Source: a virus
Lineage: Duplodnaviria > Caudoviricetes
Reading direction: 5' to 3' (one strand)
IMG/VR virus record: IMGVR_UViG_3300035498_000319
Location: 1-64,000 of that record
DNA length: 64,000 nucleotides
Below are positions 31,573-55,977 of this stretch, piece by piece. Position 1 is the stretch's first letter; each line of letters starts with the position of its first letter. Under the pieces are notes generated by a model, which saw only the letters and a program-made list of their open reading frames with translations, made no database searches and was not told the DNA's origin. Made by a program: the position numbers and the translations under genes.

Positions 31573-33964
31573 ATGAAAGAAGAAAAACGAGAACTGATAG
31601 ACCCTTTAGAGTTTTACGAACATGAAGAGTTTATACCAGTGGACGAGTGGACTCCTACCAAGGAGGAAATGATATTCACAACTACGAAAGGTGCTATTAT
31701 AGCTGATGTCTCTGGCTACTTTGGAGACAGTCATCAAAGCGCTAGTAATACCTTTGTAATGAGTCCAAAGCGGTCTTATAATTCCGTAGCTATGCGAGAG
31801 CATATCACTTTATATCTGAATTACTTTGAGAGATTCTATGATAGAGATCATCAGCTTTTCTCAACCTATTGCAGAATAAAGTATATGATCGATCATGAGG
31901 AAGGATATACGAAGAGTATGTTCTTCTTTGATCTAATGAAGTATATCATACGTGGTCCGATAGAGATGAAGACCATGAATATGAATGCTGCTAATTATTG
32001 CCTTAGCTTGAATTATAAGTCCCGTACTAGTTCTTCTCTTCAGTATAATGATGAACATGCTATGCTGATGATGAAGATCTCGGTACAAATAAATCAAATC
32101 ATTCCTCTTCTATGTCATTTCATGTATTCCAGAAAAATACAGAATACGTCTGACTTTTTGTTTGAAATATATGATAAGGTCATAGATGGGTATGATATAG
32201 ATATCTATTCTAAATTGTATGAGACAGCGTATTCCAATGTAATAAGATCCGTCAAGCAGAATCCTATTATATGGGGTAAGCAATCTATTAGAGGTAATGA
32301 CCCTATAACTCATGCAATGCAGTCAGTTCAGAATATCCTGATAAATATTATATGCAAATATGTGTATAATGGGAATTTAATACACCTTGAATTCAGGGCA
32401 GCATAATAGCAATATTATGACTGAATTCTCCTTAATTGCTGGGAACTCTCTGAGGAGACAATCAGCAGCTAAGCAATATTATATAAAGAAAGGAAGTGAT
32501 ATTGAAAGTTCAACGACTATCGAAAGGATATCTTAGAAGAAATATCTAAGAGAATAACCGAGTAGAGTAGGATAATAAATCCGAAATGGGAGACATCCCT
32601 AGTATGGTAAAAGTATTAGGGATGAAGATATAGTCTAGTCTCCATAGCGATATGGGGTAGTTACGAAATTATAATTCCGTTATCAGGAACACCGGATATC
32701 AAATCACCAATATCGAATACGAATATGCTTTTGTTGCTCTTAGTAGTAGCAAGAGAGACGAGGATTAAGTTACTACGAATATAACACTAATTTATTCGAG
32801 TAGATTCAGTCCCCTTGATATGGAAACATAACAAGGAAAAACCATTTGAATTGCTGGGAAGCCGTAAAGCCTTTATGCCACAACGGAGCGATTTTTATGC
32901 ATACGTGAAGGAGATGAAAATCTGAAAGAAGTTAAAGGATGCTATATGGGGAAACTCTAAGTAGTAATCAGTAATCGGTAATCAGCAGCTAAGCACAGTG
33001 CTGTGCGAATCGGAAGTTGAATATATTGGATATCTTTAGGACCAGATAGGTGCAAGACCTATATCCAATACCATAATGATTTTAAAATGTAAGCAAAAGA
33101 TCCTTATGTAAGTTATAAACCTAATAGACCGGTATAATTACCGGAGGAAGGAGCAAGCGCGCACAAGCACAGACGAAAGTTCAACGACTATCGAAATCTT
33201 ATTGTATCGCTCACTGAGTTAAAGATATAGTAAAGAGAGTAGAGTAGGGTAGTTCAATACTGTAGAGCTATCCGAAGTGGATGGGGCCCTAACGGAGAAT
33301 GCCGAGGGTTATGATATAGTCTATTGTCTGTAGAAATACAGAATGTAAAAAGATGAATTCTGAATTCGATAAATTTGAGTCTTATATTACTAAAGCAGAT
33401 GCTGCTCTAGCAATGCAGAATCAAATAGGTGCTGATGAAGCAATGAAACTAATCAGACAAAGATTTGGACCCTTCGATCCAGAAGAGATAAGATTCTTTA
33501 AGAGAAGACTCTCTGATGAGACTGGAAGGGTTAAGATTAATAGTCTACAGAAGATGCTTGTATTCAATCTATTCTATAAGTATTTTCTGGATACGCAGGC
33601 TGTTAATTGTATCAATCTGGATGATTATATCACTCTTATACTTGCGGCTAGAAAGATTCTAGAAGAGAATGGCATGTATCTACTTGCTGCTATAACCTCT
33701 TCTAAAGTTGTAAGAATGGCTACAAGAAAGAATGTGAATAAGAAAGAACTAACTAAACTAGAAGGCAGTGAAGTCTATACTTCTATTAGAGAGAAGTATA
33801 GAAATGATAAAATAGAAAAACAAATTCTAGGAATCATTGCGGCTGTCTTAAGTTCCGACTTCGAGTATATCAATTTCCATGATAAAGAAATCGATGGAAG
33901 AAGTATAAATGTCACGGCTGAAATTGCTTCAGAGGAAATTCTTATGTATGTGAATATGATATGA
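31573..33964 (+). CDS. Sigma-like promoter-specificity subunit of non-virion RNAP (AR9 gp226/phiKZ gp68-like); exons 31573-32387, 32666-32765, 33353-33964; 508 aa
   Basis: Spliced frame continuous (LIHL/NYNSV...KRDED/MNSEFDKFE); KRSY, IIPLLCHF, SKLY, IIW, INSLQ, SEEIL match my recollection of gp226; early promoter 31532-31541. Confidence 0.75.
32388..32665 (+). ncRNA. Group I intron 1 (ORF-less, 278 nt)
   Basis: AATTGCTGGGAA (P), AATCAGCAG (Q), GTTCAACGACTA (R), GATATAGTCT (S); P1 U32387-G32396; terminal G. Confidence 0.9.
32766..33352 (+). ncRNA. Group I intron 2 (ORF-less, 587 nt, large P5 and P6 extensions)
   Basis: Same P/Q/R/S elements; P1 GGAT|T with AGTCC; P10 GATTCA with exon TGAATT; terminal G33352. 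Confidence 0.9.
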
Positions 33965-34049
33965 TTAGACACGTACATAAGAATTATATAGATAAAAATG
34001 GACAGTTTACAATCTGTCCATTTTTATTTTTTTAACTATAATATTAAAG

Positions 34050-34333
34050 ATATGCGGATATATAGTAAGACTCCTATAAAGTTATTTATCGGTGGGAGCA
34101 TTGAATTCTGCGAATATATCTTTACCACCCGACTCCCGTAGTCAAACTACATTCAAACAAGTCACTCTCAAGTCACATTTTTAAATGGTGGAAAGATTAA
34201 CGCACTTTCCATCCATGCACCGAAAAACAGGGTATCATATTTAACCAGAAAAACTCCAAAATTCTTGAATCAATTTTCTCTCTGTCTACTGCGTATTTAT
34301 CGGCCCATGCATTTGGGCCGATAAATTCTTTTT
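34050..34333 (+). ncRNA. Putative structured ncRNA (~280 nt)
   Basis: No ORF; ends pair (ATATGCGG/CTGCGTAT), internal hairpins, strong terminator ~34288-34333. Confidence 0.5.
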
Positions 34334-34405
34334 AATCATATATTATAGTAATGCCTTAGATATATATTATAACCAAAACAGACAAATAAACGGAGGCGAT
34401 TAATT

Positions 34406-34834
34406 ATGATTAATATATTTAAGAATAGAATTAAAATTGGAGCAAGTTATATACTAGATAAGAATAATTCTCTTAAGCTGTATGAATATGATCCCGTAGT
34501 GGTAAGAGTAGTAAAACGAACCGGCTTTAATAAATATAGAGTTATTCCTGTAGCTCCTGTATTATTACCGGCAGAAAGTGAAGACTCTTATTCCTTAAGG
34601 CATTTGGATGTGAAAAGAGAATTACTAACTAGAATAGATGATTCTAATAAGACTATAGTAGTTAGATTTCCGTCTAATATGCCTGTATTTAGCGATGTAG
34701 ATATAATAAAGCTAGATGGCATCGTCAAGTCTACTGAAATGGGATTTGCATTAAATAAATCTCAGATAACCGATTTATCTAAGATTGCTTGTAAGATCGC
34801 TTTAGCCCATAGAATTGCTAATATAGAGGTGTAA
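34406..34834 (+). CDS. Early hypothetical protein
   Basis: 142 aa, GGAGG RBS, tandem early promoter motifs 34338-34370. Confidence 0.6.
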   Translation: MINIFKNRIKIGASYILDKNNSLKLYEYDPVVVRVVKRTGFNKYRVIPVAPVLLPAESEDSYSLRHLDVKRELLTRIDDSNKTIVVRFPSNMPVFSDVDIIKLDGIVKSTEMGFALNKSQITDLSKIACKIALAHRIANIEV

Positions 34835-34839
34835 GTAGT

Positions 34840-35109
34840 ATGGAAGAGTTAAGAGATCCTATAGTATTTAAAGATCCGGAATCTAAGTTGGAGAATTATA
34901 TCTCTATGAGATTATTGCGTATGGATTTATTAAATCTAAGAAAGTCAGAGAAATTAAGTCAGAAAGATGTATCTTATAAATCCGGTTTATCTATGTCTTG
35001 TATATCTGGTATTGAAAATGATGGATCTGTAAGTCCTTATTTGAAATCCGTTATTAAGTATATAGACGCTTTAGGATATGAGATATGTCTCAGAAAGAAA
35101 GAAGTATAG
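34840..35109 (+). CDS. XRE-family helix-turn-helix protein
   Basis: LRK...LSQKDVS..SGLS..CISGIEN...P.LKSV. Confidence 0.85.
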   Translation: MEELRDPIVFKDPESKLENYISMRLLRMDLLNLRKSEKLSQKDVSYKSGLSMSCISGIENDGSVSPYLKSVIKYIDALGYEICLRKKEV

Positions 35110-36166
35110 AAGAATGAATAATAGGAATGAAAGTACTGAAGCATTTGAAGCTTTAAAAGCATACTTGATTAAGAATGAAAATGCTATTATAGCTTCAGGA
35201 GGAAGAGAAGTAGTTAAGAGATGCCACTTCTGTGGTGACTCTAGAGATCTATCATCTCGCCATTTATATATTGGCTTAAAAGATGATGGAAGTATAAAGT
35301 ATAATTGTTTTAAGTGCCAATCGCATGGAACTGTCGATGGAGAATTTCTAAGAAATATTGGATGCTATGATGGAGATTTAATCAGAAAGATCATAGAATC
35401 ATCCTCTAAATGTACTTCTAGACAATATATCGATAAAACGCGAATTCATAAAATAGCCAATCCTATACTAACGTATAGAGATGCTCCTGAGACGTATAAA
35501 AAACTTGAAAGTATCAATAAGCGTTTAGGAGTATCTCTATCTTTAAATGATATTACTAATCTGAGAATAGTATTAAATCTATATGATTATCTAAATGCAA
35601 ATCATATAGGGATTACTAGAGCAAAAGATGTAGCAGATCAATTAGATATGTTCTTCTTAGGATTCTTATCCGTTGGCTTCGATATGATTATTATGAGACG
35701 CTTAGTACCAGAAGGAAAGTTATATTCTGGCATAGATACTCGATATGTCAACTATAATATTTATAATAGTAGATCGGTGAATAAGTTCTATTTTATCCCT
35801 ACTAAAGTAGATACTTTATATCCTATAGAAGTTCATATAGCGGAAGGCCCATTCGATATTCTAGGAGTATATCTAAATACGAATGCTAATAAAGTCAATT
35901 CTATATTTGCATCTGCTGGAGGAAAAGATTATGCAAGTTTGATTAATTTCATTATCATGAGTTCTCAGATTATGAATTTCGATCTCCATATTTATGCAGA
36001 TAATGACAACTCTGACAATATATTAATAAAGAATATACAGAGAGTTAGACCATTCTGTAGAAGCGTGATCATACACAGAAATGTGTATGAAGGACAAAAG
36101 GATTATGGAGTCTCAAGAGATCTAATTATAGATCGGGCCTATAATCCAAACAGTATTAATTATTAG
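35078..36166 (+). CDS. DNA primase (T4 gp61-like; likely start 35114)
   Basis: CHFCGD...NCFKC zinc-binding domain, EGPFD and ADND TOPRIM motifs, KD motif. Confidence 0.85.
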   Translation: MRYVSERKKYRRMNNRNESTEAFEALKAYLIKNENAIIASGGREVVKRCHFCGDSRDLSSRHLYIGLKDDGSIKYNCFKCQSHGTVDGEFLRNIGCYDGDLIRKIIESSSKCTSRQYIDKTRIHKIANPILTYRDAPETYKKLESINKRLGVSLSLNDITNLRIVLNLYDYLNANHIGITRAKDVADQLDMFFLGFLSVGFDMIIMRRLVPEGKLYSGIDTRYVNYNIYNSRSVNKFYFIPTKVDTLYPIEVHIAEGPFDILGVYLNTNANKVNSIFASAGGKDYASLINFIIMSSQIMNFDLHIYADNDNSDNILIKNIQRVRPFCRSVIIHRNVYEGQKDYGVSRDLIIDRAYNPNSINY

Positions 36167-36180
36167 AGGAGGAAATCATA

Positions 36181-36609
36181 ATGAGAACCACAGACGAGCA
36201 ATGCACCTTCACTATGAGAAAAACTAGACCAGCAAATAGAGTTAGATCGTTTCCTTTTCTTAACGATATTAACTATAGGTCCATGTATGTAAGCGAAGCT
36301 TTAAAGTATTCAGGAATGGATACTTTACATATAATCAAAACTCTATATTACACCTCTAAGATTTATCTAATTCCTTTACTGATTAAATGCTCAGTAAATG
36401 GGACTATCAATAGTGATAAACTACGTAAGTATAAGAGTGGTAAATATAGGATGCCTACAGAGCTTACATACTATGACTATGAACTAAATGGAAAAGGATA
36501 TAGATTAGATTTTAGATATGACTGGCTATATAAAGATAATAAAGAAGAGGTCAGATACGACTATAAGAAGGATAATATCCGATCCTTCTTGCAAAAAAGA
36601 GAGAGCTAA
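36181..36609 (+). CDS. Hypothetical protein
   Basis: 142 aa, GGAGG RBS. Confidence 0.55.
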   Translation: MRTTDEQCTFTMRKTRPANRVRSFPFLNDINYRSMYVSEALKYSGMDTLHIIKTLYYTSKIYLIPLLIKCSVNGTINSDKLRKYKSGKYRMPTELTYYDYELNGKGYRLDFRYDWLYKDNKEEVRYDYKKDNIRSFLQKRES

Positions 36610-36632
36610 CTAAAGCTCTCTCTTTTTTATAT

Positions 36633-37106
36633 TTATCTTCTTCTCTTCTTTTTTCTGCGTATTACATTGTTAGCAGTTTGATTTGTAGCATTGGTAGTTT
36701 CTTCCACAGTCTCCTCTTCTTCATCCTCAGTCTCTTCCTCTTCTTCTTCGGAAGATTCCTCTTCGGTGACTTCAGGCTCAGTGGAAATTTCCTCTTCTAC
36801 TGTCTCTTCTTGAATTGCCTGGGTTTCTACGACAGTAGAAGTGGACTCTTGAACTACAGGATTCTTTGCAGCTTCTCTAGCAAGTCTGGTCTGAAGATCA
36901 GCTTCAAAATCATATCTGAAGTTATTAGTGTTCAGACGTACAGTGGAACCATCAGAGAGCACTTCGTCTACAATAGCTCCTCTACAGAGACACTTAAGAA
37001 TATTTCCGAGATTCATCTTAATCTTAGTATGTACCCCATAGATAGGAGGCTGAACATTCTTTACAGGAATATTAGCCTTAATATTTACAGTCTTAATTAC
37101 AGCCAT
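36633..37106 (-). CDS. Late protein with Glu-rich tail and basic C-terminus
   Basis: 157 aa, GAGGAG RBS. Confidence 0.6.
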   Translation of the reverse strand: MAVIKTVNIKANIPVKNVQPPIYGVHTKIKMNLGNILKCLCRGAIVDEVLSDGSTVRLNTNNFRYDFEADLQTRLAREAAKNPVVQESTSTVVETQAIQEETVEEEISTEPEVTEEESSEEEEEETEDEEEETVEETTNATNQTANNVIRRKKKRRR

Positions 37107-37108
37107 AT

Positions 37109-37249
37109 TTAAATCTCCTCCATAGTAGAGCTATAGTCATCGTCTTCTCTATCGAGAACATCTACAAATTCATAGTCTTCATCGCCAACTACTTCTTGAA
37201 ACATATTTAGCTTCAGGTCTTCATGAAACAGTCTTTCAACGTCATTCAT
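37109..37249 (-). CDS. 46-aa acidic peptide not in the ORF track
   Basis: AAGGAGG RBS, late promoter 37273-37284; MNDVERLFHEDLK... Confidence 0.55.
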   Translation of the reverse strand: MNDVERLFHEDLKLNMFQEVVGDEDYEFVDVLDREDDDYSSTMEEI

Positions 37250-37275
37250 AATAGATTCCTCCTTAATAAAGTTAT

Positions 37276-38505
37276 TTAGTTGTTTTCGGATGTCGTGCTT
37301 AACACATTATTTTTTAGATAGGAACTCAGAATAAAGATATATATAGGAATCAGATAGAAAGCTGATTGCTCATCTGCTATATCTAAATCATGAACGCAAT
37401 CTGCAACAAACTGAGTCATATAATCTTCATCATCATTCATATAAGAAATCAGCACATTATATATCTTTTTAGAACTATTATCATCAAATAGCTCATTATC
37501 TAGAATGTGTTGAATAACTTCTTCATCTAGTACAGTGAATCTAGTCTTAAGAGTATCTTTATCATTATACTTAATCTGGTAATAGTCTTGCAGTCTATTT
37601 ACGAATAGAGAGTTAGCATCAGTAATCAAATCTGCTGTGGCAAATACAAGATTACCAAAGCATTTCAAGTCATGACTTTCTATAGCATATAAGAAAGACT
37701 TAGAGTACTCATAACCGAAGAAAGGACTTACATATGTCTGATGTCCTACATACATATATTTATCTCCATATGACATAAGACTATTTCTTCTAATGAACTC
37801 TATTAGATATGGATCATAGAAGTTCCATGTATCTCTAAACTTAAATACAAAAGTTTGTACTCTTGAATCATAGAATAGAGAATTATAATAGTTTACAAGA
37901 GATTCTTGTAGTTCTTCTATAGAAGTAGCTAAATTATATTCTTCATCTGAAATGAGACAGTTAAATTCTGTCCCTACATATTCTACAATGAATTTATATG
38001 TAGCTACTACTTGGTCTTTAATCTTCTCACTATTATCCACCAATTCAAGATGGAATTCTATCTTATAGATATTGGCTCCAGTATCCAATGTATCTGGAGA
38101 TACAGAGTCTACTTTGAATAATAGATCTTCTTTAATATAATTTATAGAAAAGAAGTCTCCTGGCAATGGCTCTATTGTATTAGGAAGAATAGTGCAATCT
38201 CCAGAAATAGCATTAGCCTCTACTCCATTATCTCCAACATCATATTCTACTGTAATATCAGGAAGTCCATAGAGAAGGAACTCGTTGATTTGATTAAATT
38301 TAATAGCAGACTGATCTGATACATGAGCATACTGCATATGAGACGCCCTATCAAGAGTAGTCTTCTTTATATTTTGCTTATAATAGGTTACAGGTGTAGG
38401 TTTCTTATCCGAGAATAAATAATACGGGTTATTCAATTTACTCTTACTACTCTCTACGAGACTATTAAGAGTATTGAGGTATGATGTATTTGTAAAACTA
38501 CCCAT
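37276..38505 (-). CDS. Virion structural protein, possibly neck/head-tail
   Basis: 409 aa; ILPNTIEPLPGDFF...FKV motif typical of jumbo neck-like proteins. Confidence 0.45.
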   Translation of the reverse strand: MGSFTNTSYLNTLNSLVESSKSKLNNPYYLFSDKKPTPVTYYKQNIKKTTLDRASHMQYAHVSDQSAIKFNQINEFLLYGLPDITVEYDVGDNGVEANAISGDCTILPNTIEPLPGDFFSINYIKEDLLFKVDSVSPDTLDTGANIYKIEFHLELVDNSEKIKDQVVATYKFIVEYVGTEFNCLISDEEYNLATSIEELQESLVNYYNSLFYDSRVQTFVFKFRDTWNFYDPYLIEFIRRNSLMSYGDKYMYVGHQTYVSPFFGYEYSKSFLYAIESHDLKCFGNLVFATADLITDANSLFVNRLQDYYQIKYNDKDTLKTRFTVLDEEVIQHILDNELFDDNSSKKIYNVLISYMNDDEDYMTQFVADCVHDLDIADEQSAFYLIPIYIFILSSYLKNNVLSTTSENN

Positions 38506-38597
38506 AGTTCTATAACCTCCTTTACACTTAATTATAAGTTGTCTATGCCAAAATGAGTGGTTTTGTATTAATCTAAGAAGTATATAAACATATATTT

Positions 38598-38688
38598 AAT
38601 CCATACCTCCTATGGATGACGGTTTTCTTTCTTGTGTTTCCTAAGATATAATTACAGAGTGGTTTTATACCACTCTGTAATCTCTTTT
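38598..38688 (+). ncRNA. Putative ~90-nt late sRNA with CCUCC hairpin loop
   Basis: AACA-TATATT-TA at 38587-38598, 7-bp stem with loop CCTCC, terminator 38651-38688. Confidence 0.55.
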
Positions 38689-40046
38689 TAATATGCATAT
38701 CTCTTATAATTCTCTTTTGCTCTCTCAACATTCTTATCATATTCATCTTCCATACCATGAGAAAAGATATCTCGAATATCGCCATTAAATACTTTAAGAA
38801 AAGCTCTGTCCAATCCATTGGAGAAGAAGAATCCGTCATCTTCAAGTTTTACATAGGCATCAAGCAATTCTCCGATTGCTTTAAGTTCTTTATTAAGTTC
38901 TTTTTTCATCTCTGGATTCAAATTTCCCTTTTGTAATTCTCTTTGGATATAATCGTACTGTTTCTTAATTCTAGTACAAGCATTCGGATGAGGTTCAAAT
39001 ATATTTATAATAATCTTAGAAGGAATCATCAAAAGATCAAAATAATTTCCGACAAAAGACCCTCCGTCTCGGTAGAGCTGTACTCCTATGTGTCCTCCTG
39101 AGTTGTGCTTCAACTTATATAGAATAGATGCTAATTCAATCCCATAGCCGAAAGAAGTTACAAACATATCGGAACTTGCTTCTTCTCTATATCCGATAGG
39201 CATAAAAACAACATTTATCAGATTATTAAGGTTAAGCTTACTTGCAACTTGAGAAGGAATGGAAGCGATTACAGAAGTTGGATTAATTAATGCTAAAAAA
39301 TTAGTTATAATAATCTGACCCTGTAAAAATGCTCCGATTACTACCTTGACAAAATTCGATATACAAGAGAATGCATCTACAAAGAAAGATAAATTCTTTT
39401 CAATCGAATTCTTAATATCAATATAGAAATTTCTATAAAAACCGGTCTGAGGCAAAAGGAGTGCAGGGGTTAAACAAAGCATAAGTATCTGTCTAATTCT
39501 GGCTAGTACCATACCGGATTGAGTTGTTGCACTAAAGAAATTACGGCCAACTTCATGCAGCAATAGAGCTGTTACTTCAGCATCTGTATAATCTGGATAG
39601 AAGAATAACCCCTTAGTCACATAGACATACAGCATTACGTTTGCGTCTCTAGTATATCGGATTCCTTTACCGTTTTTAGAAATCATATACTTTTGCATAT
39701 CTTTAAAATTTGTAACATGATTTGAAATAGGATATGAGAAAATGTTATGATCTCCGCGCATATCCATATCAAAGCTACAAGATGTAAAACCGAAGGCATC
39801 ACAAAGCGCTTGTTCTATATCTCTTGCTTCCTGCGAAGCAACGAATCTATGAGGCTTAGTCATATACGCTTTTCTGGCAGCCCCGATACATCTTTCGATG
39901 TTCTTCACTTCAGGAGTCTTACCATAATAAGCCTCGTTAATCATGGTAAGAATCTTTTGTTCCATAATAGCAGCTTCATTAATTTCCATAAAAGGATCTG
40001 GGCCAGAAGTTTTACTTTCAGCCAGACCCATCATTTCTAAATACAT
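38688..40046 (-). CDS. M48-like zinc metallopeptidase homologue with degenerate HEVGR motif
   Basis: ALLLHEVGRNF, TM-like segments, EASSDMF..FGYG, EPHPN..RI. Confidence 0.65.
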   Translation of the reverse strand: MYLEMMGLAESKTSGPDPFMEINEAAIMEQKILTMINEAYYGKTPEVKNIERCIGAARKAYMTKPHRFVASQEARDIEQALCDAFGFTSCSFDMDMRGDHNIFSYPISNHVTNFKDMQKYMISKNGKGIRYTRDANVMLYVYVTKGLFFYPDYTDAEVTALLLHEVGRNFFSATTQSGMVLARIRQILMLCLTPALLLPQTGFYRNFYIDIKNSIEKNLSFFVDAFSCISNFVKVVIGAFLQGQIIITNFLALINPTSVIASIPSQVASKLNLNNLINVVFMPIGYREEASSDMFVTSFGYGIELASILYKLKHNSGGHIGVQLYRDGGSFVGNYFDLLMIPSKIIINIFEPHPNACTRIKKQYDYIQRELQKGNLNPEMKKELNKELKAIGELLDAYVKLEDDGFFFSNGLDRAFLKVFNGDIRDIFSHGMEDEYDKNVERAKENYKRYAY

Positions 40047-40150
40047 TATAATGCCTCCTTATAAGTAAAGTCATTATTAATATGTGAAATATCGTTAAGT
40101 TACTAAAGCCTTAACCAGATAATAATTTACTTTAAAAGGAGGAAACTACA

Positions 40151-40474: not shown

Positions 40475-40478
40475 ATTT

Positions 40479-44030: not shown

Positions 44031-44036
44031 TTCTCA

Positions 44037-47771: not shown

Positions 47772-47865
47772 GCCCAGTCTTTTGTTTTTTATCATTACCG
47801 GAACAGCCCAATAATTTATTTGGCTATATATTATAAAGATATAAACACACAAGGAGGAGAATTAT

Positions 47866-48372: not shown

Positions 48373-48815
48373 TAGAAATGGTATTTGATATTATAGAGGC
48401 TTATAAGAAATATCATAAGTATCCGAGATTTATAAGATGGCTACTTATGAGAAAATATAAGAAGAAAGCTTTGCAAATCATCGAAAGCCCTATATATAGT
48501 AGGGATGATTTGCATGACATTATATGGACAATGGTTACTGTGAAAGAAACCATTGGAGATACATTCCTTACTCCAGAATTGGATGTATCCTATAAGAATG
48601 GAATTGCAAGATTCAATTATAGGATGAGTCCTATATGGTTTGGTAGATTTGAAATAAATGTAAGAGTGCTAGATAGAATCCATGTAGAGATAAACTCTGG
48701 AACGATTGGTCGGGGACTTGAAATGGATTCTATAGGCGATGGATCGGCAACTATAGCTAAACGAGCAAAAGAAATGATTGAGCTGGTTGCTAAAGAATGC
48801 ATCAGATCTATTTAA
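48369..48815 (+). CDS. Hypothetical protein
   Basis: ATGA overlap with the previous gene. Confidence 0.55.
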   Translation: MIEMVFDIIEAYKKYHKYPRFIRWLLMRKYKKKALQIIESPIYSRDDLHDIIWTMVTVKETIGDTFLTPELDVSYKNGIARFNYRMSPIWFGRFEINVRVLDRIHVEINSGTIGRGLEMDSIGDGSATIAKRAKEMIELVAKECIRSI

Positions 48816-48833
48816 GAAAAGAGGTAAGAGAGT

Positions 48834-49385
48834 ATGCCCGATAAAACTATGTCTAATCTGTTTATAGATAGACTTAATGATATCTATATCCCGGAGAAAC
48901 ATACTATACGCAATCATATTAAGGCTTATAAGTCTAGAGAAAGATATGATGCGTTTATAGACACGATCATGCATGGATCGCCAGATTTAAATCTTCTATG
49001 GCAATTTGCAGATTTTATTAAATTGAGTGAGCGTATCTATGGATATGATAACTCCAGTAAGAATAAAGTCTTCTCTTCTTATAAGTATTCGGAAGGAGAG
49101 AATGGTTTTAAACTTACTACAGAGACCTGCACTATTGTCATAAAACTTTTTGAGAAAGACAATGCTGTTGGTATTGACATAGAGAATACCCATGGCAGTA
49201 AATTAAAGTCTAACTTCTATTTTGAGGATATGAGCTGGACTACCAATCCAACAGTATATGACGAACTTCAATTAGACCATATCATAGATATTGTCAATCA
49301 AAGTATGGTATCTATGTTTAATGAGGTTATCAAATTAAGGTTTGGCTTCAGATACGAAGAAATTGAGCATGTTACATACCTTTAG
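48834..49385 (+). CDS. Hypothetical protein
   Basis: 183 aa, GAGG RBS. Confidence 0.55.
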   Translation: MPDKTMSNLFIDRLNDIYIPEKHTIRNHIKAYKSRERYDAFIDTIMHGSPDLNLLWQFADFIKLSERIYGYDNSSKNKVFSSYKYSEGENGFKLTTETCTIVIKLFEKDNAVGIDIENTHGSKLKSNFYFEDMSWTTNPTVYDELQLDHIIDIVNQSMVSMFNEVIKLRFGFRYEEIEHVTYL

Positions 49386-49492
49386 TTGGTTGGTAAAATA
49401 GCTGTAACAAAACTATAAATCAAAACGTGCTATTTTTAGGACTTAGGATAAATGTCCTAAGTCCTAAATCTATTTGGAGAGGTGAAATTAAA

Positions 49493-50641
49493 TTGAGGTA
49501 TTATGAAAACACAAATCCGAATAATGAAGTTGTAGCAATTCATATTGCGGATATTCACTTTGGAAGTATAGATCCTATACAGACCTATACTATTTTGGAA
49601 GAGCAATTCCTACAGCCCATCAGTAGAATTAAGTTTGATATACTTTCTATCGATGGGGATTTATTTGACAAGAAGTTCTTAGCCAATAATATGGCTATTA
49701 CTTTAGGAGTCGAGTTTATTAATCGCTGTGCTAGATTATGTAAAGAACGTCAAGCTACTCTTGTATTATTATCCGGTACAGCTTCTCATGATGCAAACCA
49801 ACTATCTCTTTTCTATGGGTTAAGGCAAGATATGGAATTGGATGTCCGTATTATAGAATCGATTAGATTCGAGATTATAAAAGGACTAAAAATTCTATGT
49901 ATTCCAGAAGAGTATGGAAAGCCTATAGAGTATTATACGACTTTTCTAAGTGAGAGATACGACCAAGTGTTCTTACATGGTACCATAGTCAATTCCGTAT
50001 ATGGGGCTAATAAAAGAATGCTTGGTAGTAAGAGAGCCCCTGTATTTGACTTAGAATGTTTTAATGGGTGTAGAGGTCCCATTATAGCAGGTCATGTGCA
50101 TAAAGCTATGTGCTTAGATGGATATATGTATTATGTCTCCAATCCAATCCGATATAGATTCGGAGAAGAAGAAGAAAAAGGATATGCTATAGTATTATCT
50201 AGCAATCAAGGGCATTATTATAAATTCATGCCCATCGAGTCATTTCGCTATGATACTGTGAATATAAATGATATAGTCTATAATGACCCGAATGTTGTAA
50301 CCGCTTATCTGGATAATCTATTAGCTTGTGGTATAGATCATGTCCGAATAGATTTCTCTAAGAGAAATGATCCTAACACGCAGGCTATAGTCGAGAAGTA
50401 TTACGCTACAAATCCCAATGTAGTCGTAAAAAGATATAAAGCTGATACAGAGCAATCTATGTATCAGCAAGATGAATCCACTATAGATAAATATAGAGAG
50501 ATGGACTTTCTCTTAGATAGCTCTATGGATGGATATACCAAATTCGTAAACTTTGTTAATCATTGTGAAGGCAAGACCATTTTGACAGTTCAACAGTTAA
50601 AAGACATCATTTCTGGAAAGGATTTCTCCGGAATATTTTGA
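49493..50641 (+). CDS. sbcD: SbcD/Mre11-like metallophosphoesterase nuclease
   Basis: ADIHFG, GDLFD, GTASHD, LHG, GHVH; TTG start after GGAGAGGTGA. Confidence 0.85.
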   Translation: MRYYENTNPNNEVVAIHIADIHFGSIDPIQTYTILEEQFLQPISRIKFDILSIDGDLFDKKFLANNMAITLGVEFINRCARLCKERQATLVLLSGTASHDANQLSLFYGLRQDMELDVRIIESIRFEIIKGLKILCIPEEYGKPIEYYTTFLSERYDQVFLHGTIVNSVYGANKRMLGSKRAPVFDLECFNGCRGPIIAGHVHKAMCLDGYMYYVSNPIRYRFGEEEEKGYAIVLSSNQGHYYKFMPIESFRYDTVNINDIVYNDPNVVTAYLDNLLACGIDHVRIDFSKRNDPNTQAIVEKYYATNPNVVVKRYKADTEQSMYQQDESTIDKYREMDFLLDSSMDGYTKFVNFVNHCEGKTILTVQQLKDIISGKDFSGIF

Positions 50642-50973
50642 GAAAGGTCGTAAAGGCAATGAAATATATCGTATACGTTCTTACAAGCAAAGTAAACAAA
50701 AATGAAAATATATATTATATATTTGAAGATGCGTATGAACGCATTGTAGATATTAGACCTGTTTTCCATCATTGCATAGAAATGATGGAAAAGTCAATGC
50801 CTGCCATATATAGAAACATAAATGATTATGAAATAAAGAGGAAAATTATGACTGATAAAGAAGTCTCAAGACTAGAAAGGTATTATTCCATCTCTAGTAA
50901 GAGAGATGGGCATAGAGGTTTCGATACGACCGTAATGCCTAAGTTAAAGATAAATCGAAATATAGAATATTGA
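50638..50973 (+). CDS. Hypothetical protein
   Basis: 111-aa ORF in the operon. Confidence 0.45.
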   Translation: MRKVVKAMKYIVYVLTSKVNKNENIYYIFEDAYERIVDIRPVFHHCIEMMEKSMPAIYRNINDYEIKRKIMTDKEVSRLERYYSISSKRDGHRGFDTTVMPKLKINRNIEY

Positions 50974-51038
50974 CAAAAAATATACCTGAAACATATTAAT
51001 ACCAGAAGAAAATTCTGACTGAAGAGGAGGACAGAATT

Positions 51039-52850
51039 ATGGATTACGATAGAAAGAGTCGTTATGACTCTCAGCTACAAAAGAAAGAGAAAACTGATAT
51101 CATTGATATAGCAGTAGATCTACATACGTTAGATCTCTTTTGTAAGATGGTTGTGTCTACTAGTAAATATATTAGACATGCTAACTTAGTAAATATTTCA
51201 AAATTCATTTCTATAGTAAACCCTGAAAGATATAGAAATGATCCAGAGAAAGCAAAGCGGATAAATTTTATTAAGAAAGGTTTAGAAGCAAGAATAGGGT
51301 TAAACATCATCGATCCATATCTTATCGTACAGCATATCAATGGTGGAGTTATTGTAGACGATGGAATCGTCGATTTAGATAACTTCGAGGATATTCCTGC
51401 GGCAGAACTCGAATTCATCAATATGATGGTTTCGCAGACTTTGAATTATGCCTCGATCTATACGAGCGTAGACAAGATTATGGATGTATGCACAAGATTT
51501 AAATCGGGAGAATATAGCAATAGAGGTGAAATTGTAGAAGATATTAAGAATACTCTAAATGGAGTACAGAATGAATTTCGAAGAAATAGAAATAAAGATC
51601 GCATGGATATGATATTTAGTCTAAGAGACGAAATCTTTGACGAATCAATTAGAGAGACCTATAATAGAGCGGCAAGCCCTAAGAGAAAACTCTGCACTGG
51701 AATGCAGGGTATGAATGAACTTCTTGGCGGTGGATTTGAGCCAGGAAGAGTATATGTCTATTTTGGACTTCCAGGTGAAGGTAAGAGCGCAACAATCCTA
51801 AATCTAATGTATCAAATTAAGAAGTATAATTGCAGTTATCAATGCAAAGATCCAACTAAACGTCCATGTATTGTAATGCTTACAATGGAAAACTCAGTAG
51901 AAGAAACCATTGAAAGATTGTTTGGCATTGCAACTGGTAGACCGAAAATGACAGATTTTGATGCTGATACTGCTATCAATATTCTTAAAACGGAGGGAAG
52001 ATTAAATTTAACTCCTGAAGACCCGATAGATATTATCATTCAGTATAAGCCAACCAATTCTGTAGATACAAGTTATCTTTATACTCTTTCAGATGATCTT
52101 GAAGATCAAGGTTATGAGGTAATTGCATTCTTTCAGGATTATATTGGACGTATTAGATCTACACAGCATTACACCGATATTCGCCTAGAATACGGTATGG
52201 TTGTAGACGACTTTAAAGTATTCTCCCAATTTAAAGATATTCCCGTCATTACTGTGTCTCAGTTAAATAGAGATGCAAGCCAAAAGATTGATGATGGGAA
52301 ACGCGCTAGTAGGACAGACTTAGTGCGTATTCTAGGAAGAAGCAATATCAGTGAATCAATGATGCTACTTAATAATTCAGATGGTTGTTTTACTATTACT
52401 CCTGAGTATACAGCAGAAGGCAAGAAATATCTTGGAGTACAGAGAATTAAGAAGAGATATGAAGCTAGTTCGCTCGACTGTATCTTCTTGCCGTTCTCTA
52501 ATCCTAATAGTATTAAACTTCTCGAAGATTTTGGCTCTGAGCCTGTATTTAAGAAGACTTTGAGAACTCAGATGAATACTCAGTCTAATCCTTCTACTGG
52601 TACTGGATTTAAGATGAATGAAGTGAAAGACTTTGAAAAGTCTAAATCCCTTAATCATACACCCGTATTTAATACATCTATCTATAGTGCTAATACTATA
52701 GATTCTATTCAAGATTTCGTACCTTTGATCGATCCTATGGTGTTTTATGAGAAACCAAAGATGGTAATTCCGTTATCATCTGCAATGATCGATCCTATTG
52801 CATTTAAACCGAGAAATCAACAACTCATCGATCCGATGGTTTTTTATTAA
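51039..52850 (+). CDS. dnaB: DnaB-like replicative helicase
   Basis: Walker A GLPGEGKS, LTMEN, QDYIG, VSQLNR, SES. Confidence 0.9.
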   Translation: MDYDRKSRYDSQLQKKEKTDIIDIAVDLHTLDLFCKMVVSTSKYIRHANLVNISKFISIVNPERYRNDPEKAKRINFIKKGLEARIGLNIIDPYLIVQHINGGVIVDDGIVDLDNFEDIPAAELEFINMMVSQTLNYASIYTSVDKIMDVCTRFKSGEYSNRGEIVEDIKNTLNGVQNEFRRNRNKDRMDMIFSLRDEIFDESIRETYNRAASPKRKLCTGMQGMNELLGGGFEPGRVYVYFGLPGEGKSATILNLMYQIKKYNCSYQCKDPTKRPCIVMLTMENSVEETIERLFGIATGRPKMTDFDADTAINILKTEGRLNLTPEDPIDIIIQYKPTNSVDTSYLYTLSDDLEDQGYEVIAFFQDYIGRIRSTQHYTDIRLEYGMVVDDFKVFSQFKDIPVITVSQLNRDASQKIDDGKRASRTDLVRILGRSNISESMMLLNNSDGCFTITPEYTAEGKKYLGVQRIKKRYEASSLDCIFLPFSNPNSIKLLEDFGSEPVFKKTLRTQMNTQSNPSTGTGFKMNEVKDFEKSKSLNHTPVFNTSIYSANTIDSIQDFVPLIDPMVFYEKPKMVIPLSSAMIDPIAFKPRNQQLIDPMVFY

Positions 52851-52884
52851 TAGATTATCTAGGAGGATTATATCCTCCTAGATT

Positions 52885-53304
52885 TTAGCTTCCGCCATAT
52901 GTAGTATTATACACTTTAATACTATCTATTTCGGAATTATAAATATAGCTCATAAGCTGAGACATATAATCTCTACTAAGCATAAGGAAAGTCCTCTTAT
53001 TAAATTCTTTTACATCAGCCATATCGTTGATTAGAAGAATTACAAAATATAATTCAGGATTTCCATATATATTATAGCAGAGAAGTTTCGGCTTATACAT
53101 ATACTTTCTATATTCATCATCACTGAGTTTAACGGTTACACATAAAGATCTAATCTCATCCATGTAGTCATTGATTACATCGAGAATAGATACTTGCGTA
53201 CCATTGGACATAGTTTCAAGAAAGGAGAATGACTTGTATGATAGAGAAGTATTAGAAGCAGAAGAGACGAACTCCTCGATAGTAGTTGTATTCTTAGGTA
53301 GCAA
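52885..53304 (-). CDS. Baseplate wedge protein, T4 gp53-like
   Basis: YKPKLLCYNIYGNPELYFVILLIN motif. Confidence 0.75.
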   Translation of the reverse strand: MLPKNTTTIEEFVSSASNTSLSYKSFSFLETMSNGTQVSILDVINDYMDEIRSLCVTVKLSDDEYRKYMYKPKLLCYNIYGNPELYFVILLINDMADVKEFNKRTFLMLSRDYMSQLMSYIYNSEIDSIKVYNTTYGGS

Positions 53305-53422
53305 TTCTATATGCCTCCTTTAGATAATTATCAGGGGTTTAACTCTAAATTAATTTATAGTTTTATCTTGCACTTTCCAAGGAGGTGCAGGGGATAATTT
53401 TATTTAGAAGGAGATATTTCAC

Positions 53423-53944
53423 ATGGATGAATTATCAAGAAAGTTTAATAATATGCTTATGTCTGAGGTCGGTTTTGATATCGACAAGACTGGTCATATT
53501 GTAGATCAAGATACTGGAGAGAAAGTACAGTTTAGCGAAAGGGATCTGGTTGCTTATGGAACTGGGATGCATTATCCTAAAGGGTCTGTAGAAGAGTTTG
53601 ATCCCTATAATAGTAGCAAAATGATGTCTCAAACTTTCTCCTACTATATGGAGAAACTCCAAGAAAGTGGAGAAGTTCCGCACTATAACATCATGTACAA
53701 TGTAGATGATGACGATAATAAAGCAAGATTCGAGATTAAGAATGAAGACAGTAAGCTGGTATCTAAGGGATATCTGAGAGATCAATGCAGATATGCCGAT
53801 ATTATTCTTCAGCTTAATGGAGAACCTGAGCCTGATCTTAGCGAATTTGATATTCCTAAAGCGGTTCAAATCGCTAATCAGAAAAAAGAAGTTAAGAAGA
53901 AATATGATAAGAAGAAGAAAGAGATTAAGAAGAAGACTAAGTAA
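53423..53944 (+). CDS. Hypothetical protein with Lys-rich tail
   Basis: 173 aa, AAGGAG RBS. Confidence 0.6.
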   Translation: MDELSRKFNNMLMSEVGFDIDKTGHIVDQDTGEKVQFSERDLVAYGTGMHYPKGSVEEFDPYNSSKMMSQTFSYYMEKLQESGEVPHYNIMYNVDDDDNKARFEIKNEDSKLVSKGYLRDQCRYADIILQLNGEPEPDLSEFDIPKAVQIANQKKEVKKKYDKKKKEIKKKTK

Positions 53945-53958
53945 AGAGAGGAAAAGCT

Positions 53959-54207
53959 ATGTATAGTACGAAAACTGTAATAAAGCAAATTGATGAATTC
54001 ATTGAGGCCAACTTCGATAAGGAGAATTACAAAGTCGAAGTTAATGAATATATAAGACATGTCTTAGCGAATATCGATCGTCCCGACATTGATATCTATA
54101 GAAAGATGATATGGGACTATGTAAACTTTAAGGAGCACATGAAAGAAGAGGAGGCTAGGAAGTATGAATATAGAGCTGAATCAGAAACAGTTGGAGATTG
54201 TAACTAA
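53959..54207 (+). CDS. Hypothetical protein
   Basis: 82 aa, GAGG RBS. Confidence 0.5.
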   Translation: MYSTKTVIKQIDEFIEANFDKENYKVEVNEYIRHVLANIDRPDIDIYRKMIWDYVNFKEHMKEEEARKYEYRAESETVGDCN

Positions 54208-55384
54208 AGCAGTTACTTGGTTCTTCTCTGGTTCAGAACAGGTCTTCCAGTTTTCTGGAGGACCTGGTACTGGAAAGTCTGTTGTGCTGAATGCTATAGT
54301 AGATGCTATAGCAGCTAAGAGAAAAATCAATGTTGCTCCTATGGCTTATACGGGAGCGGCGGCAATCGTAATGAGAATGAAGGGCATGCCTAATGCTCGT
54401 ACTATTCATTCTTGGTTATACGTCTGTGTAGAAGACGTTATGCTCGATGATATGGGACAACCTATCATGGACAAATACTTCAATGTACCTGTTACTAGAA
54501 CGAGATTTGTTAGAAACGATGAAGAGTTGGCTAATATAGATCTCATAGTGATAGATGAAGGAGGAATGGTTCCATTAGAGATGAAGGATGATCTCCTAGC
54601 AATAGGAAAGAAAATCCTAGTGGCTGGAGACATTAATCAGATTCCTCCTATAACGGGATCATCTGCTTTCCTTACTACAGGAAGAGTAGAGATTCTTACA
54701 GAGATAATGAGACAAGCAGAGAACTCTGCTATTGTATATTTATCTCAAAGAGCACTTCATGGATTACCTATTCATTTAGGTAACTATGGAGATTGCTTAG
54801 TCATTCAAGAGCATGAGCTTACAATGGAGATGCTCGCTTATGCTAATATCATTCTCTGTGGAACCAATAATACAAGAGAAAAATATAATCGGTTCTATAG
54901 ACGAGAAATTATGCATTGCGAAGGTCCATTACCTCATATGGGAGAGAAGTTAATCTGTAGAAAGAATAACTGGACTCTTCAAGCTGGAGGAATTAATCTA
55001 ACCAATGGAATGTCTGGTATAGTGATTAATGAACCCGATGTAAGAAGCTTTAAGGATAAGCTATTTACAATAGACTTTAATCCTGTATTGACTAACTGCC
55101 CTTTCTATGATATAGAGGTAGACTATGAATATTTCATAGCTCCTTTTAATAGAAAGCAGGAGTTAAAGATGTTAAGAAGACCAAAGCAAGCTAATCAGTT
55201 TGATTTTGGTTATGCTCAAACGGTTCACACTTCTCAGGGTTCTCAATGGAATACTGGTATTTATATTGAAGAACCTATGAGAGATATGAATAAATTAAAC
55301 TATACGGCTATATCAAGATTCTCTAAAGCTTGTATAATCGTAAAAAACAATGCTAAATATTATACTGGAGGTAATTTATTATGA
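54164..55384 (+). CDS. RecD/Dda-like SF1B helicase
   Basis: GGPGTGKS, TIHS, IDEGGM, GDINQIPP, EIMRQ, YAQTVHTSQGSQW, YTAISR. Confidence 0.9.
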   Translation: MNIELNQKQLEIVTKAVTWFFSGSEQVFQFSGGPGTGKSVVLNAIVDAIAAKRKINVAPMAYTGAAAIVMRMKGMPNARTIHSWLYVCVEDVMLDDMGQPIMDKYFNVPVTRTRFVRNDEELANIDLIVIDEGGMVPLEMKDDLLAIGKKILVAGDINQIPPITGSSAFLTTGRVEILTEIMRQAENSAIVYLSQRALHGLPIHLGNYGDCLVIQEHELTMEMLAYANIILCGTNNTREKYNRFYRREIMHCEGPLPHMGEKLICRKNNWTLQAGGINLTNGMSGIVINEPDVRSFKDKLFTIDFNPVLTNCPFYDIEVDYEYFIAPFNRKQELKMLRRPKQANQFDFGYAQTVHTSQGSQWNTGIYIEEPMRDMNKLNYTAISRFSKACIIVKNNAKYYTGGNLL

Positions 55385-55977
55385 GTAACGAGAATGAGAA
55401 GGTATTGGTTGACCCTATGTCTTTTAAGCCTGGTTCTGAATTTTCAGACCAGAAACCTGAGAAGACATTCGGAGTGGACATGATTCCGGATAAGGACGTA
55501 GAGAAGAAGACTTATATTCTTCTTCTGAAGCTTGAGGATTATATCACTGATCTGGAGACAGATGAGTGTGGTATCTTCGTAGTATGTGAAGGAAGAACTG
55601 CCGCGTATCGGATGATTGAAAACTATCTCCAGAGATATGGAGCTTCTGTTTTCAATGTATATGATTCTCGGATTCTTACCGAGACAAAGCAGACCAACTC
55701 TAAGACCAATAAGAGAGAGTACTTTATGATTAACTACGATAAAGCTATCTCTGTCTATGGGTTCTGCAAGACGGTAGAAGGATTCTATGGAAAGATGGGA
55801 TTCTCTATTGATGAATATGTAGATGACTCTGAAGCTTATGAAGGCTCTGAGTTAGAAGCTGAGGATAATGAAGTAGCTTCTGAAGATGATGAAGCTATGA
55901 ATTACTTCAAGGCTCATGCTACAGATGAAGTAGGTCAAGTGCCTCTCGACTATGATGGTGAAGGCCAAAATGTATGA
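55381..55977 (+). CDS. Hypothetical protein with acidic tail
   Basis: 198 aa; N-terminal LVDPMSF motif. Confidence 0.6.
   Translation: MSNENEKVLVDPMSFKPGSEFSDQKPEKTFGVDMIPDKDVEKKTYILLLKLEDYITDLETDECGIFVVCEGRTAAYRMIENYLQRYGASVFNVYDSRILTETKQTNSKTNKREYFMINYDKAISVYGFCKTVEGFYGKMGFSIDEYVDDSEAYEGSELEAEDNEVASEDDEAMNYFKAHATDEVGQVPLDYDGEGQNV

Follow-up and report, generated by a model that had tools for sequence, protein, structure and literature searches.

A short peptide with the consensus L-I-(D/E)-P-(M/I/L)-x-(F/Y)-(Y/F) recurs at the termini of replication and transcription proteins of an uncultured AR9-like giant phage, where, judged from sequence, it is most likely a short linear docking motif. 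We consider it somewhat probable (roughly 55%) that this peptide, hereafter the tag, is read by one co-evolving, phage-encoded and most likely clamp-like receptor. Observed here are the motif itself and its position at termini, that it is conserved and functionally biased, and that it changes in concert among relatives; from these observations we infer that there is a single receptor, that the phage encodes it and that it is clamp-like in nature. We found no published description of the tag. The window, a stretch of 64,000 nucleotides, belongs to a contig of 93,313 bp, and the motif statistics cover the whole contig (102 ORFs, 28,432 aa). The strict pattern [LMIV][IVR]DP[MLIV]xF occurs 7 times against 0.028 expected (500 shuffles, maximum 1), and the core pattern DP[MLIV]xF 8 times against 0.72 expected. 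All eight cores lie within 70 aa of a protein terminus, a zone that holds only 44% of the residues, so that the terminal enrichment over a shuffled background, proposed as a check by an earlier sequence-only reading of the window, is present. A weight matrix trained solely on tails from other genomes gives 12 matches in this contig at a score of at least 10, against 1.3 expected, all of them at termini or within the linker of a ligase. Codon usage varies among the tag copies, and the two LIDPMVFY copies on the DnaB-like helicase differ at synonymous sites alone (5 differences), which argues for selection on the peptide rather than for a DNA repeat.

The carriers inside the window are all encoded on the plus strand. 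The DnaB-like replicative helicase (51039..52850, 603 aa; Pfam divDNAB/DnaB_C), whose residues 20-497 are 30% identical to AR9 DnaB, has three tags in its C-terminal tail: LIDPMVFY at 52725..52748 (LIDPMVF 52725-52745, weight-matrix score 23.6), MIDPIAFK at 52785..52808 (MIDPIAF 52785-52805, score 11.5) and, abutting the stop codon, LIDPMVFY at 52824..52847 (LIDPMVF 52824-52844, score 23.6). In the AF2 model, tail residues 485-603 have a pLDDT of 27-35 and almost no secondary structure, which supports disorder weakly because the whole model is poor (mean pLDDT 53). [quoted passage not shown] Its blastp alignment to the AR9 nvRNAP subunit begins at residue 59, so that the ~34-50 residues at its N-terminus form an extension specific to the clade, and orthologues read LLEPMEF, LVDPMVF, KPFTI or IPLIRKI at the equivalent site. 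An XRE-type HTH protein of 89 aa (34840..35109; Pfam HTH_3), encoded immediately 5' of the primase gene, has LRDPIVF at residues 4-10 (34849..34869), a weaker match with a weight-matrix score below 9; its orthologue in relative G001 (56% identical) reads LIEPMVF at the equivalent site, and that in G002 is without a tag. The fourth carrier, p198 (55381..55977), lies 3' of the Dda-like helicase gene, has no assigned function and gives no Pfam or PHROG match. It carries LVDPMSFK at 55405..55428 (LVDPMSF 55405-55425, score 15.2), and its orthologues have one or two N-terminal tags of their own lineage's type (LIEPMIF and LINPMEF in G001, LVKPFTV in G004). The sequence-only reading had picked out these peptides on the helicase, the sigma-like (gp226-like) subunit, the XRE protein and p198, and every one lies where it had been placed.

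The phenomenon is larger than first noted. Outside the window, the same contig encodes an nvRNAP beta-C tail with 3 tags (contig coordinates 81196, 81229 and 81328), an NAD ligase with a tag in an inter-domain linker (81781), p101 with a tag at its C-end (67818) and two tagged Zn-ribbon proteins (87209 and 88609); nvRNAP beta-N is a further carrier. Alignments of beta-C to AR9 and to all cultured phages end at residue ~665, before the tags at 679-730, so these sit on clade-specific extensions. In relatives, beta'-C, the N-subunit of the split DNA polymerase (DNAP-N), an SF2 helicase and SbcD are tagged as well. Overall, the tag is on 31 of 93 nucleic-acid enzymes and on none of 117 virion proteins (Fisher tests genome by genome give p from 0.04 to 7e-5), and small DNA binders (Zn-ribbon, HTH) are also among the carriers. 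Metabolic proteins are untagged, as are UvsX, topoisomerase II, primase, Dda and the C-subunit of the polymerase. Of the five nvRNAP subunits, four each bear a tag of their own. Tags on four separate subunits exceed what recruitment of the assembled enzyme would need, and would suit a signal that targets single polypeptides just as well.

Lack of conservation in orthologues had been named as a potential refutation, and the tag is kept in 67 of 85 distinct DnaB tails and 77 of 111 beta-C tails. DnaB orthologues have 20.1 tags per 1000 aa in the last 45 residues versus 0.066 in the body, and beta-C orthologues 12.9 versus 0; in orthologues, the tag is ~260 times denser in disordered tails than in the folded body. 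The sequence around the tag in the DnaB and beta-C tails is not conserved. Among four complete relatives the tag changes in concert over 10-16 proteins, from LIEPMxF to KPFTI and then LFxKI. Terminal matches to the first form (type A) number 5 in G000, 12 in G001 and 6 in G002 and are absent from the other genomes; the 16 matches to KPFxI (0.8 expected) are confined to G004 and the 11 to LFxKI (0.07 expected) to G005. AR9 has none. Unbiased discovery of terminal 3-mers independently finds PM.F, PF.I/KPF and LF..I, and more lineages have variants of their own (LIDPL, NPFIH, LxPMVxF, E[CA]VTF and [KI]PF.F). The same orthologous termini are tagged across all lineages, and in p240 the tag is at the C-end in G004 and at the N-end in G005. 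Diverging flanks, a copy number of 1-3 and such shifts in position are typical of short linear motifs; the low pLDDT of the DnaB tail, weak evidence given the poor AF2 model, fits the disorder expected of them. Between lineages, Pro is replaced by Cys, Ala, Gly or Leu and the charge at position 3 is reversed, and this rapid divergence speaks against a receptor that is conserved in the host, for instance DnaN.

Two weaker forms that the sequence-only reading had added in beta' do not follow the lineage in this way. IVNPVAF (28163..28183, plus strand), in the N-part of the virion RNAP beta' and within the region aligned to AR9 vRNAP beta', belongs to a conserved fold and is found at the same position in every relative, including the tag-less AR9 (KEVTNPVYF). 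ITNPVF before the stop of the same N-part (29723..29740, plus strand) is a conserved C-end, reading MSNPSF-stop in G002 and LTAPIF-stop in G005, and does not switch with the lineage tag. We therefore rejected both as tags.

To explain these observations, we propose that proteins of replication, repair and late transcription display the tag on flexible extensions at their N- or C-termini, and in one case on a linker between domains, and that every copy would be read by one phage-encoded receptor. The receptor pocket would co-evolve with the tag, leaving each phage lineage with a private version. The receptor would most likely be a DNA-associated platform, similar to a sliding-clamp 'toolbelt' such as T4 gp45. 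It would gather the tagged enzymes on the phage DNA and could tie late transcription to replication; where one protein has several copies (DnaB and beta-C, with 3 each), an oligomeric receptor would be bound with avidity. To our knowledge, replicative helicases are not among the classical clients of clamps, which counts against a clamp-like hub.

The gp45 clamp of T4 and RB69 serves polymerase gp43, gp33 and gp55 through peptides at their C-termini, and also serves the ligase. The sequence-only reading had drawn this analogy, and it stands for the client list and the form of the peptide: a short hydrophobic/acidic terminal peptide is common to polymerase, ligase and late-transcription subunits (here DNAP-N in relatives, the ligase, the gp226-like subunit and RNAP beta/beta' parts), the C-end of gp43 reads SLDFLFG-stop vs LIDPMVFY-stop here, and the one-hub logic of coupling late transcription to replication is alike. 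No gp45/PCNA/beta family gene is detectable, as Pfam PCNA_N, DNA_pol3_beta and gp45-slide_C give no match above cut-off in five genomes, and the SSB family likewise has no Pfam match in them. Unlike in T4, moreover, the tags lie at both N- and C-termini and in one linker, in up to 3 copies; the clients number 10-16 and include the replicative helicase, an SF2 helicase, SbcD and four RNAP subunits; and the peptide is lineage-private, changing in concert between related phages. The earlier proposal of a docking or targeting tag for a common phage hub is thus partly supported: its core is strongly supported by comparison of the genomes (conserved tails, functional restriction and concerted change), whereas Pfam detects no canonical clamp or SSB family in the five genomes, and the beta' forms that it included are fold elements and not tags.

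The best positional candidate for the receptor is a gene of ~265 aa (p265), which is conserved directly 3' of DNAP-N in type-A genomes; in the present phage the equivalent position falls just past the contig end. Lineages that carry other tags give no detectable match to the p265 profile, as would suit a tag reader that evolves fast. The profile matched no solved structure by sequence, and against T4 gp45 hhalign gives an E of 0.39. The same slot is occupied in G004 by a membrane protein and in G005 only by an ORF of 173 aa whose link is weak (E 0.003, probability 10%).

The related jumbo phages PhiKZ and Goslar resemble the present phages in having a split family-B polymerase, a DnaB-like helicase, two multisubunit RNAPs and no recognisable canonical clamp. 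In these chimalliviruses, replication and late transcription are both supported by a hidden factor of clamp descent, Rhc, which joins RNase H to a clamp-derived part and is a subunit of their split DNA polymerase; it is monomeric, with a folded polymerase interface of ~1800 Å2, and no linear motif is described for it (PMC13648687, PMC13648698). The RNase H protein of the tag-bearing clade (~250 aa) has no clamp-sized extra domain.

It is possible, though rather unlikely, that the tag is instead an address label into a phage replication/transcription compartment or phase-separated factory, read by an import factor or a scaffold, which could be p271. The tagged set matches the expected content of a phage 'nucleus' or factory (polymerases, helicases, ligase, nvRNAP and DNA-binding regulators), the bare virion and metabolic proteins and the separately tagged nvRNAP subunits fit such a label, the extreme-terminal positions are PTS1/PTS2-like, and some relatives have tubulin genes. 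Similarly, the PicA/Imp import of Chimalliviridae brings selected replication and transcription proteins, nvRNAP subunits among them, to the phage DNA. However, the five untagged enzymes listed above work on the same DNA, Pfam recognises no chimallin-like shell protein, tubulin is absent from G001 and G002, and the sharp tag specificity of each lineage suggests a folded pocket over a fuzzy phase. Chimallivirus import reportedly relies on folded surfaces and not on a linear signal, as Kokontis is said to have found in 2025. As cited in PMC13648698, this import is likewise reported to recognise folded cargo through several interfaces and not through a linear tag.

The scaffold candidate itself, p271/p289 (58119..58988, plus strand), is speculative. 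It is a core gene of the tag-bearing clade, present in all tag-bearing genomes examined (G000, G001, G002, G004, G005, L017 and L030), and its family has 922 representatives; it is absent from all cultured phages including AR9 (no tblastn match in 50,697 cultured phage records). Its composition is scaffold-like, with a Zn-binding core and a helical hairpin between Q/P/Y/G-rich disordered arms; AF2 gives core residues 50-165 a pLDDT above 90 and disordered arms. The link between p271 and the tag is co-occurrence, and the fold search gave no informative match. The 20 core proteins of no assigned function likewise gave no informative Pfam match.

A receptor that modifies or folds its clients appears unlikely. 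MAPK and cyclin docking motifs recruit enzymes to their clients, and multi-copy terminal docking motifs are typical there, so the tag might recruit a phage modifying enzyme or chaperone. The clade core includes a kinase-like protein, p484 (G001 117861-119315), which combines a Zn ribbon with a long acidic tail, and an 877-aa protein with a GNAT domain (p877), and a GroEL homologue is present. However, all three are tied to the tag by co-occurrence alone, the kinase was assigned by eye and finds no match in Pfam, GroEL is also encoded by the tag-less AR9, and Zn-ribbon/HTH proteins of 90-120 aa are unlikely chaperonin clients.

Hijacking of the host sliding clamp, DnaN, is very unlikely. The host clamp-binding consensus is Q-L-[SD]-L-F or QLxLxL. 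The five-residue core of the tag, hydrophobic-hydrophobic-x-(P/L)-(M/F), has a QLxLF-like architecture, to which L-I-R-L-F of G005 comes close, and Pfam recognises no clamp encoded by these phages. Bacterial beta-clamp motifs and the eukaryotic/archaeal PIP box (the 'toolbelt' hubs) likewise combine one hub pocket with a degenerate short motif in the disordered termini of many DNA enzymes (polymerases, ligases, helicases and nucleases). But position counts give L-I-(E/D)-P-M-x-F without Gln; position 4 is Pro in each of the 57 + 118 instances (the search pattern itself requires Pro there) and +3 is an aromatic, so that the tag does not match the host consensus. Bacteria share a conserved DnaN pocket and a conserved motif for it, and such hub motifs are kept across whole domains of life, whereas the tag turns over inside a single phage clade (Pro to Cys, KPFTI, LFxKI, VVSF), each variant being enriched solely in its own genome. 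Cellular RNAP core subunits are also not clients of these hubs, unlike the RNAP subunits here. In the SSB C-terminal-tip interactome, the hub SSB bears the peptide and its clients bear the pocket; here 10-16 clients carry the peptide, which does not follow that scheme.

Finally, typical degrons are terminal, exposed, hydrophobic peptides and AR9 encodes an ATP-dependent protease, but it is highly improbable that the tag marks proteins for degradation at a set time by an AAA+ protease, whether of host or phage, as G001 showed no homologue of the AR9 protease, a host protease would keep constant a tag that diverges fast between lineages, and a replicative helicase and a late RNAP are unlikely to keep up to three degrons each clade-wide.

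The contig of 93,313 bp, of which the window forms the first 64 kb, is about 38% complete according to CheckV. Protein similarity makes its source an uncultured phage distantly related to AR9 and PBS1, jumbo phages with uracil-DNA; its DnaB helicase is 31% identical to that of AR9. The sequence-only reading had pointed to LIDPMxF-like peptides on DnaB, the sigma-like subunit (here the gp226-like, promoter-specificity subunit of nvRNAP, the non-virion RNA polymerase), an XRE protein and the protein at 55381, with weaker forms in beta', and each peptide was found at the position given. Using 102 crude ORFs from the whole contig (28,432 aa), we observed the strict motif 7 times against 0.028 in shuffles, and the core DP[MLIV]xF 8 times against 0.72 expected. 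All eight core matches fall no more than 70 residues from the end of a protein, a zone that holds only 44% of the residues in these ORFs. Reversed and permuted control motifs remained at background level, which together with the shuffles rules out chance or composition as the source of the tag. As the genes are crude ORF calls, some N-terminal tag positions hinge on the start codon picked. The gp226-like gene (31546-33964) appears as separate ORFs of 286 aa (31546-32406) and 203 aa (33353-33964), a layout compatible with interruption by introns; the first ORF alone aligns to the N-terminal half of the AR9 subunit.

Codon usage varies among the tag copies, and the two DnaB copies that both read LIDPMVFY show synonymous differences only. 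Selection therefore acts on the peptide, and a repeat or regulatory element at the DNA level is ruled out. A weight matrix trained exclusively on tails from other genomes returned 12 sites on the contig scoring at least 10 (1.3 expected), all at protein termini or in the ligase linker. Carriers on the contig beyond the window are the nvRNAP beta-C tail (LIDPMVFH, LIDPIILY and IIDPIEYH), the N-terminal linker of the ligase (ISSPMVF), two Zn-ribbon proteins (LIDPMII and MENPMIFY) and p101, a 101-aa protein whose C-terminus is RIDPIEFHK-stop. The p101 ORF directly follows a gyrA-like topoisomerase II subunit gene (L001:606-3479, contig 64606-67479) with an intein at residues ~90-230 (Pfam Intein_splicing/PT-HINT).

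Conservation in orthologues, whose lack the sequence-only reading would have counted against itself, was found in both the helicase and the beta-C tails. Helicase orthologues from 120 clusters (50-60% identity, on contigs of up to 275 kb) carry one to three copies of L-I-(D/E/x)-P-(M/I/L)-x-(F/Y) in a C-terminal tail that is otherwise divergent. The tag is present in 67 of 85 distinct helicase tails, its density per 1000 residues being 20 over the final 45 positions and 0.066 in the body. In beta-C orthologues, two to three copies surround a conserved helix within an extension of 80 residues and none is found in the body; this extension is missing in AR9 and all 65 cultured relatives, whose alignments stop before the tail. 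The tag was not found in AR9/PBS1 or other cultured phages, and the AR9 proteome shows no enrichment. In a 68%-identical relative, both Zn-ribbon proteins retain their N-terminal tags, and in some lineages all copies within one protein are altered together, e.g. P-M becoming P-A, or Pro giving way to Gly or Leu. The helicase tails (P0001-P0120; L014-L036) mostly contain a second small motif, (S/N)-I-F-S-(T/A)-x-V, upstream of the tag, and the helicase of many lineages terminates in -VA, -MA or -LA. AR9 DnaB (L003:3583-5268) is without this kind of tag and ends in KDSGIPF-stop. This end is similar to the C-terminal tip of bacterial SSB, DDDIPF, so AR9 may have solved docking in another way.

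We compared whole proteomes of four complete or nearly complete IMG/VR relatives (G001, of 224 kb, G002, G004 and G005; helicase identity 38-53%), all metagenomic genomes. The tagged orthologous termini coincide across all of these relatives, yet the tag sequence differs: L-I-E-P-M-x-F in G001 and G002, (L-V)-K-P-F-T-I in G004 and (L-I)-R-L-F-x-K-I in G005, with the charge at position 3 reversed between the first pair and the other two. Terminal matches to the LI(D/E)PMxF form number 5 in the phage studied here, 12 in G001 and 6 in G002, with none elsewhere. KPFxI occurs 16 times in G004 (0.8 expected) and LFxKI 11 times in G005 (0.07 expected), each being enriched in that genome only, and AR9 shows none. 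A blind search for over-represented gapped 3-mers at termini ranked PM.F, PF.I/KPF and LF..I top or near the top in the respective genomes and gave nothing comparable in AR9. Helicase loci of 20 kb from more lineages added the variants LIDPL, NPFIH, LxPMVxF, E(C/A)VTF and (K/I)PFxF, each shared by the helicase tail and the terminus of a neighbouring gene.

The carriers are functionally coherent. In essentially every lineage the tag is found on DnaB, an SF2 helicase, DNAP-N (the N-terminal subunit of the split family-B polymerase, up to 3 copies), the ligase linker, nvRNAP beta-N, beta-C, beta'-C and the gp226-like subunit, the two Zn-ribbon proteins, p198 (the protein at 55381) and p324. SbcD, the XRE regulator, p264 and p240 (C-terminal in G004, N-terminal in G005) are tagged in some lineages. 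Never tagged are UvsX, Dda, SbcC, primase, both topoisomerase II subunits, the polymerase subunit DNAP-C, nvRNAP beta'-N, all virion RNA polymerase subunits, capsid, sheath and GroEL. When five genomes are pooled, a tag is borne by 31 of the 93 nucleic-acid enzymes with AR9 homologues versus 0 of 117 virion proteins, a comparison that overstates independence because the genomes are related; inside single genomes, the same bias gives Fisher p values from 0.04 to 7e-5. A role as a subunit-assembly peptide of the split polymerases was rejected, as unsplit proteins are tagged too and AR9 has the splits without the tags.

The weaker beta' forms, IVNPVAF and ITNPVF-stop, did not hold up as tags. Both are in the virion RNA polymerase. 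IVNPVAF lies within the conserved beta' fold, where all relatives have it at the same site, as does AR9, a phage devoid of the tag system, and the C-terminal ITNPVF-stop has counterparts in relatives (MSNPSF, LTAPIF) that show no lineage-specific switch. The two peptides are features of the fold or of the family. The end of the virion beta' N-part (29723-29743) reads x-x-(N/A)-P-x-F-stop in this phage (ITNPVF), G002 (MSNPSF) and G005 (LTAPIF), and may, distinct from the lineage tag, make contact with the beta' fragment that follows.

The tags sit at termini or in a linker, within extensions specific to the clade; they are conserved while their flanks diverge, they vary in number and place, their clients form a coherent set, and they are recoded in concert. 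Such traits would be expected if a short linear docking motif were recognised by a single receptor co-evolving with it, and we infer binding to such a receptor. Of the earlier proposal of a shared docking tag for a common phage hub, the shared tag is thus borne out by the comparative pattern, whereas its beta' instances fall away and the receptor was not found. Recoding this rapid (Pro replaced by Cys, Ala, Gly or Leu; charge reversal; a shifted aromatic) speaks for a phage-encoded receptor rather than a conserved host one such as DnaN or a protease. We ranked a DNA-associated, clamp-like platform that would read the tags of all carriers first among receptor types, since the clients resemble a clamp 'toolbelt' and the tag can be likened to the clamp-binding polymerase tail of T4, SLDFLFG-stop as read from the record. 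The Pfam families of PCNA, beta-clamp, gp45 and SSB had no detectable member in the five genomes, in agreement with the report that this phage group is without a classical clamp (PMC7824862). In chimalliviruses, the monomeric, clamp-derived RNase H fusion Rhc contacts the split polymerase over a large folded surface and supports late transcription too; no linear motif is described there (preprints PMC13648687, PMC13648698).

Several receptor candidates were examined. This clade's RNase H protein, as an Rhc analogue, was rejected as a plain RNase H that is too small. Tubulin as the hub was rejected as missing from G001 and G002; tubulin/PhuZ-like genes lie at L008:5932-7119 (a close relative of this phage), G004:213643-213873 and G005:87025-87507. 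A PHROG/Pfam hunt over about 45 ORFs and PDB profile searches with p324, p291 and p265 yielded no receptor lead. The candidate p265, a conserved gene of ~265 aa directly after DNAP-N in G001 (L055:613-1443) with an orthologue in the same slot of G002 (L102), is missed by simple non-overlap ORF calling, its first possible start overlapping the polymerase by 65 nt. Its family spans 93 clusters and has no Pfam domain. The p265 profile matched nothing in G003, G004 or G005, where the slot holds a membrane protein in G004 and in G005 a weakly linked 173-aa ORF (hhalign E 0.003, probability 10%). It matched no PDB sequence, and hhalign gave no link to T4 gp45 or AR9 gp128. The contig of this phage stops at p324, some 150 kb short of the full genome, and the polymerase gene lies past its end, so the candidate falls outside the window. 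A core protein of G001 (117861-119315; L057:17861-19315), which returned nothing in Pfam, has a Cys4 ribbon, a long acidic low-complexity tail and an N-terminal domain of ~260 aa (GTNRIVYK ... DFPY) that looks kinase-like by eye.

Alternatively, the tag may be an address label for a compartment or condensate, with p271 (58119-58988) as a possible scaffold. Such an address would account for four RNA polymerase subunits being tagged separately, and matches the extreme-terminal placement. p271 is core to the tag-bearing clade and missing from all cultured phages, and its Zn-binding core is confidently folded by AF2 between disordered Q/P/Y/G-rich arms. However, p271 and the tag are linked by co-occurrence only, the fold search (atlas and AF2) gave generic, uninformative helical-bundle matches (Z <=6.6), Pfam searches of core proteins recognised no shell protein, and UvsX, topoisomerase, primase and Dda would be left without the address. 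The p271/p289 family (922 representatives at 50% identity, none matching in cultured phages) lies upstream of gyrB in several lineages and has invariant C63, H65, C89 and C92, a helical hairpin, a core pLDDT >90 and long Q/P/Y/G/N-rich low-complexity arms; it looks like a FET-/YG-type scaffold. DnaB was modelled poorly by AF2 (mean pLDDT 53), its low-confidence tail giving weak support for disorder. Three further readings are less likely: recruitment of a modifying enzyme or chaperone, a degron, and host DnaN binding, the last running against the fast recoding.

In the widest form of the docking reading, the whole DNA-transaction machinery (replisome, repair nucleases, ligase, late RNA polymerase and small regulators) would be organised by a private address code of one peptide and one fast-evolving receptor that change together. 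The receptor would be not a classical ring clamp but a new clamp-like platform or the scaffold of a selective compartment or condensate, such as p271, and recoding would keep co-infecting relatives and host mimics off the hub. We hold this proposal tentatively, at a probability of roughly 0.3. A docking peptide shared by clients of one hub is known already; new are the client breadth, with the replicative helicase and four RNA polymerase subunits, the lack of a recognisable clamp and the lineage-private concerted recoding, and we found no paper describing this tag. The tag bears on how replication and late transcription are coordinated in PhiKZ/AR9-type jumbo phages, which are without a canonical sliding clamp. 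Its occurrence on 10-16 proteins per genome and its concerted change between lineages point to a single hub, for which it offers a bait peptide, sister-lineage versions as natural 'swap' controls, and the complete list of clients. If true, this would be an unusually clear natural case of a short linear motif and its reader co-evolving across an entire interactome.

The tag also marks the small proteins p198, p101, the Zn-ribbon proteins and p324 as members of the replication/transcription machinery. The p324 gene (contig 92337-93275, minus strand; L002:13240-14175) keeps the order SbcC - p324 - DNAP-N in all genomes. Its product, with no PDB or Pfam match, has a disordered basic N-terminus that is tagged in G001, G004 and G005, followed by a middle part resembling a coiled coil and a C-domain rich in beta structure; it may act as an accessory factor in replication.
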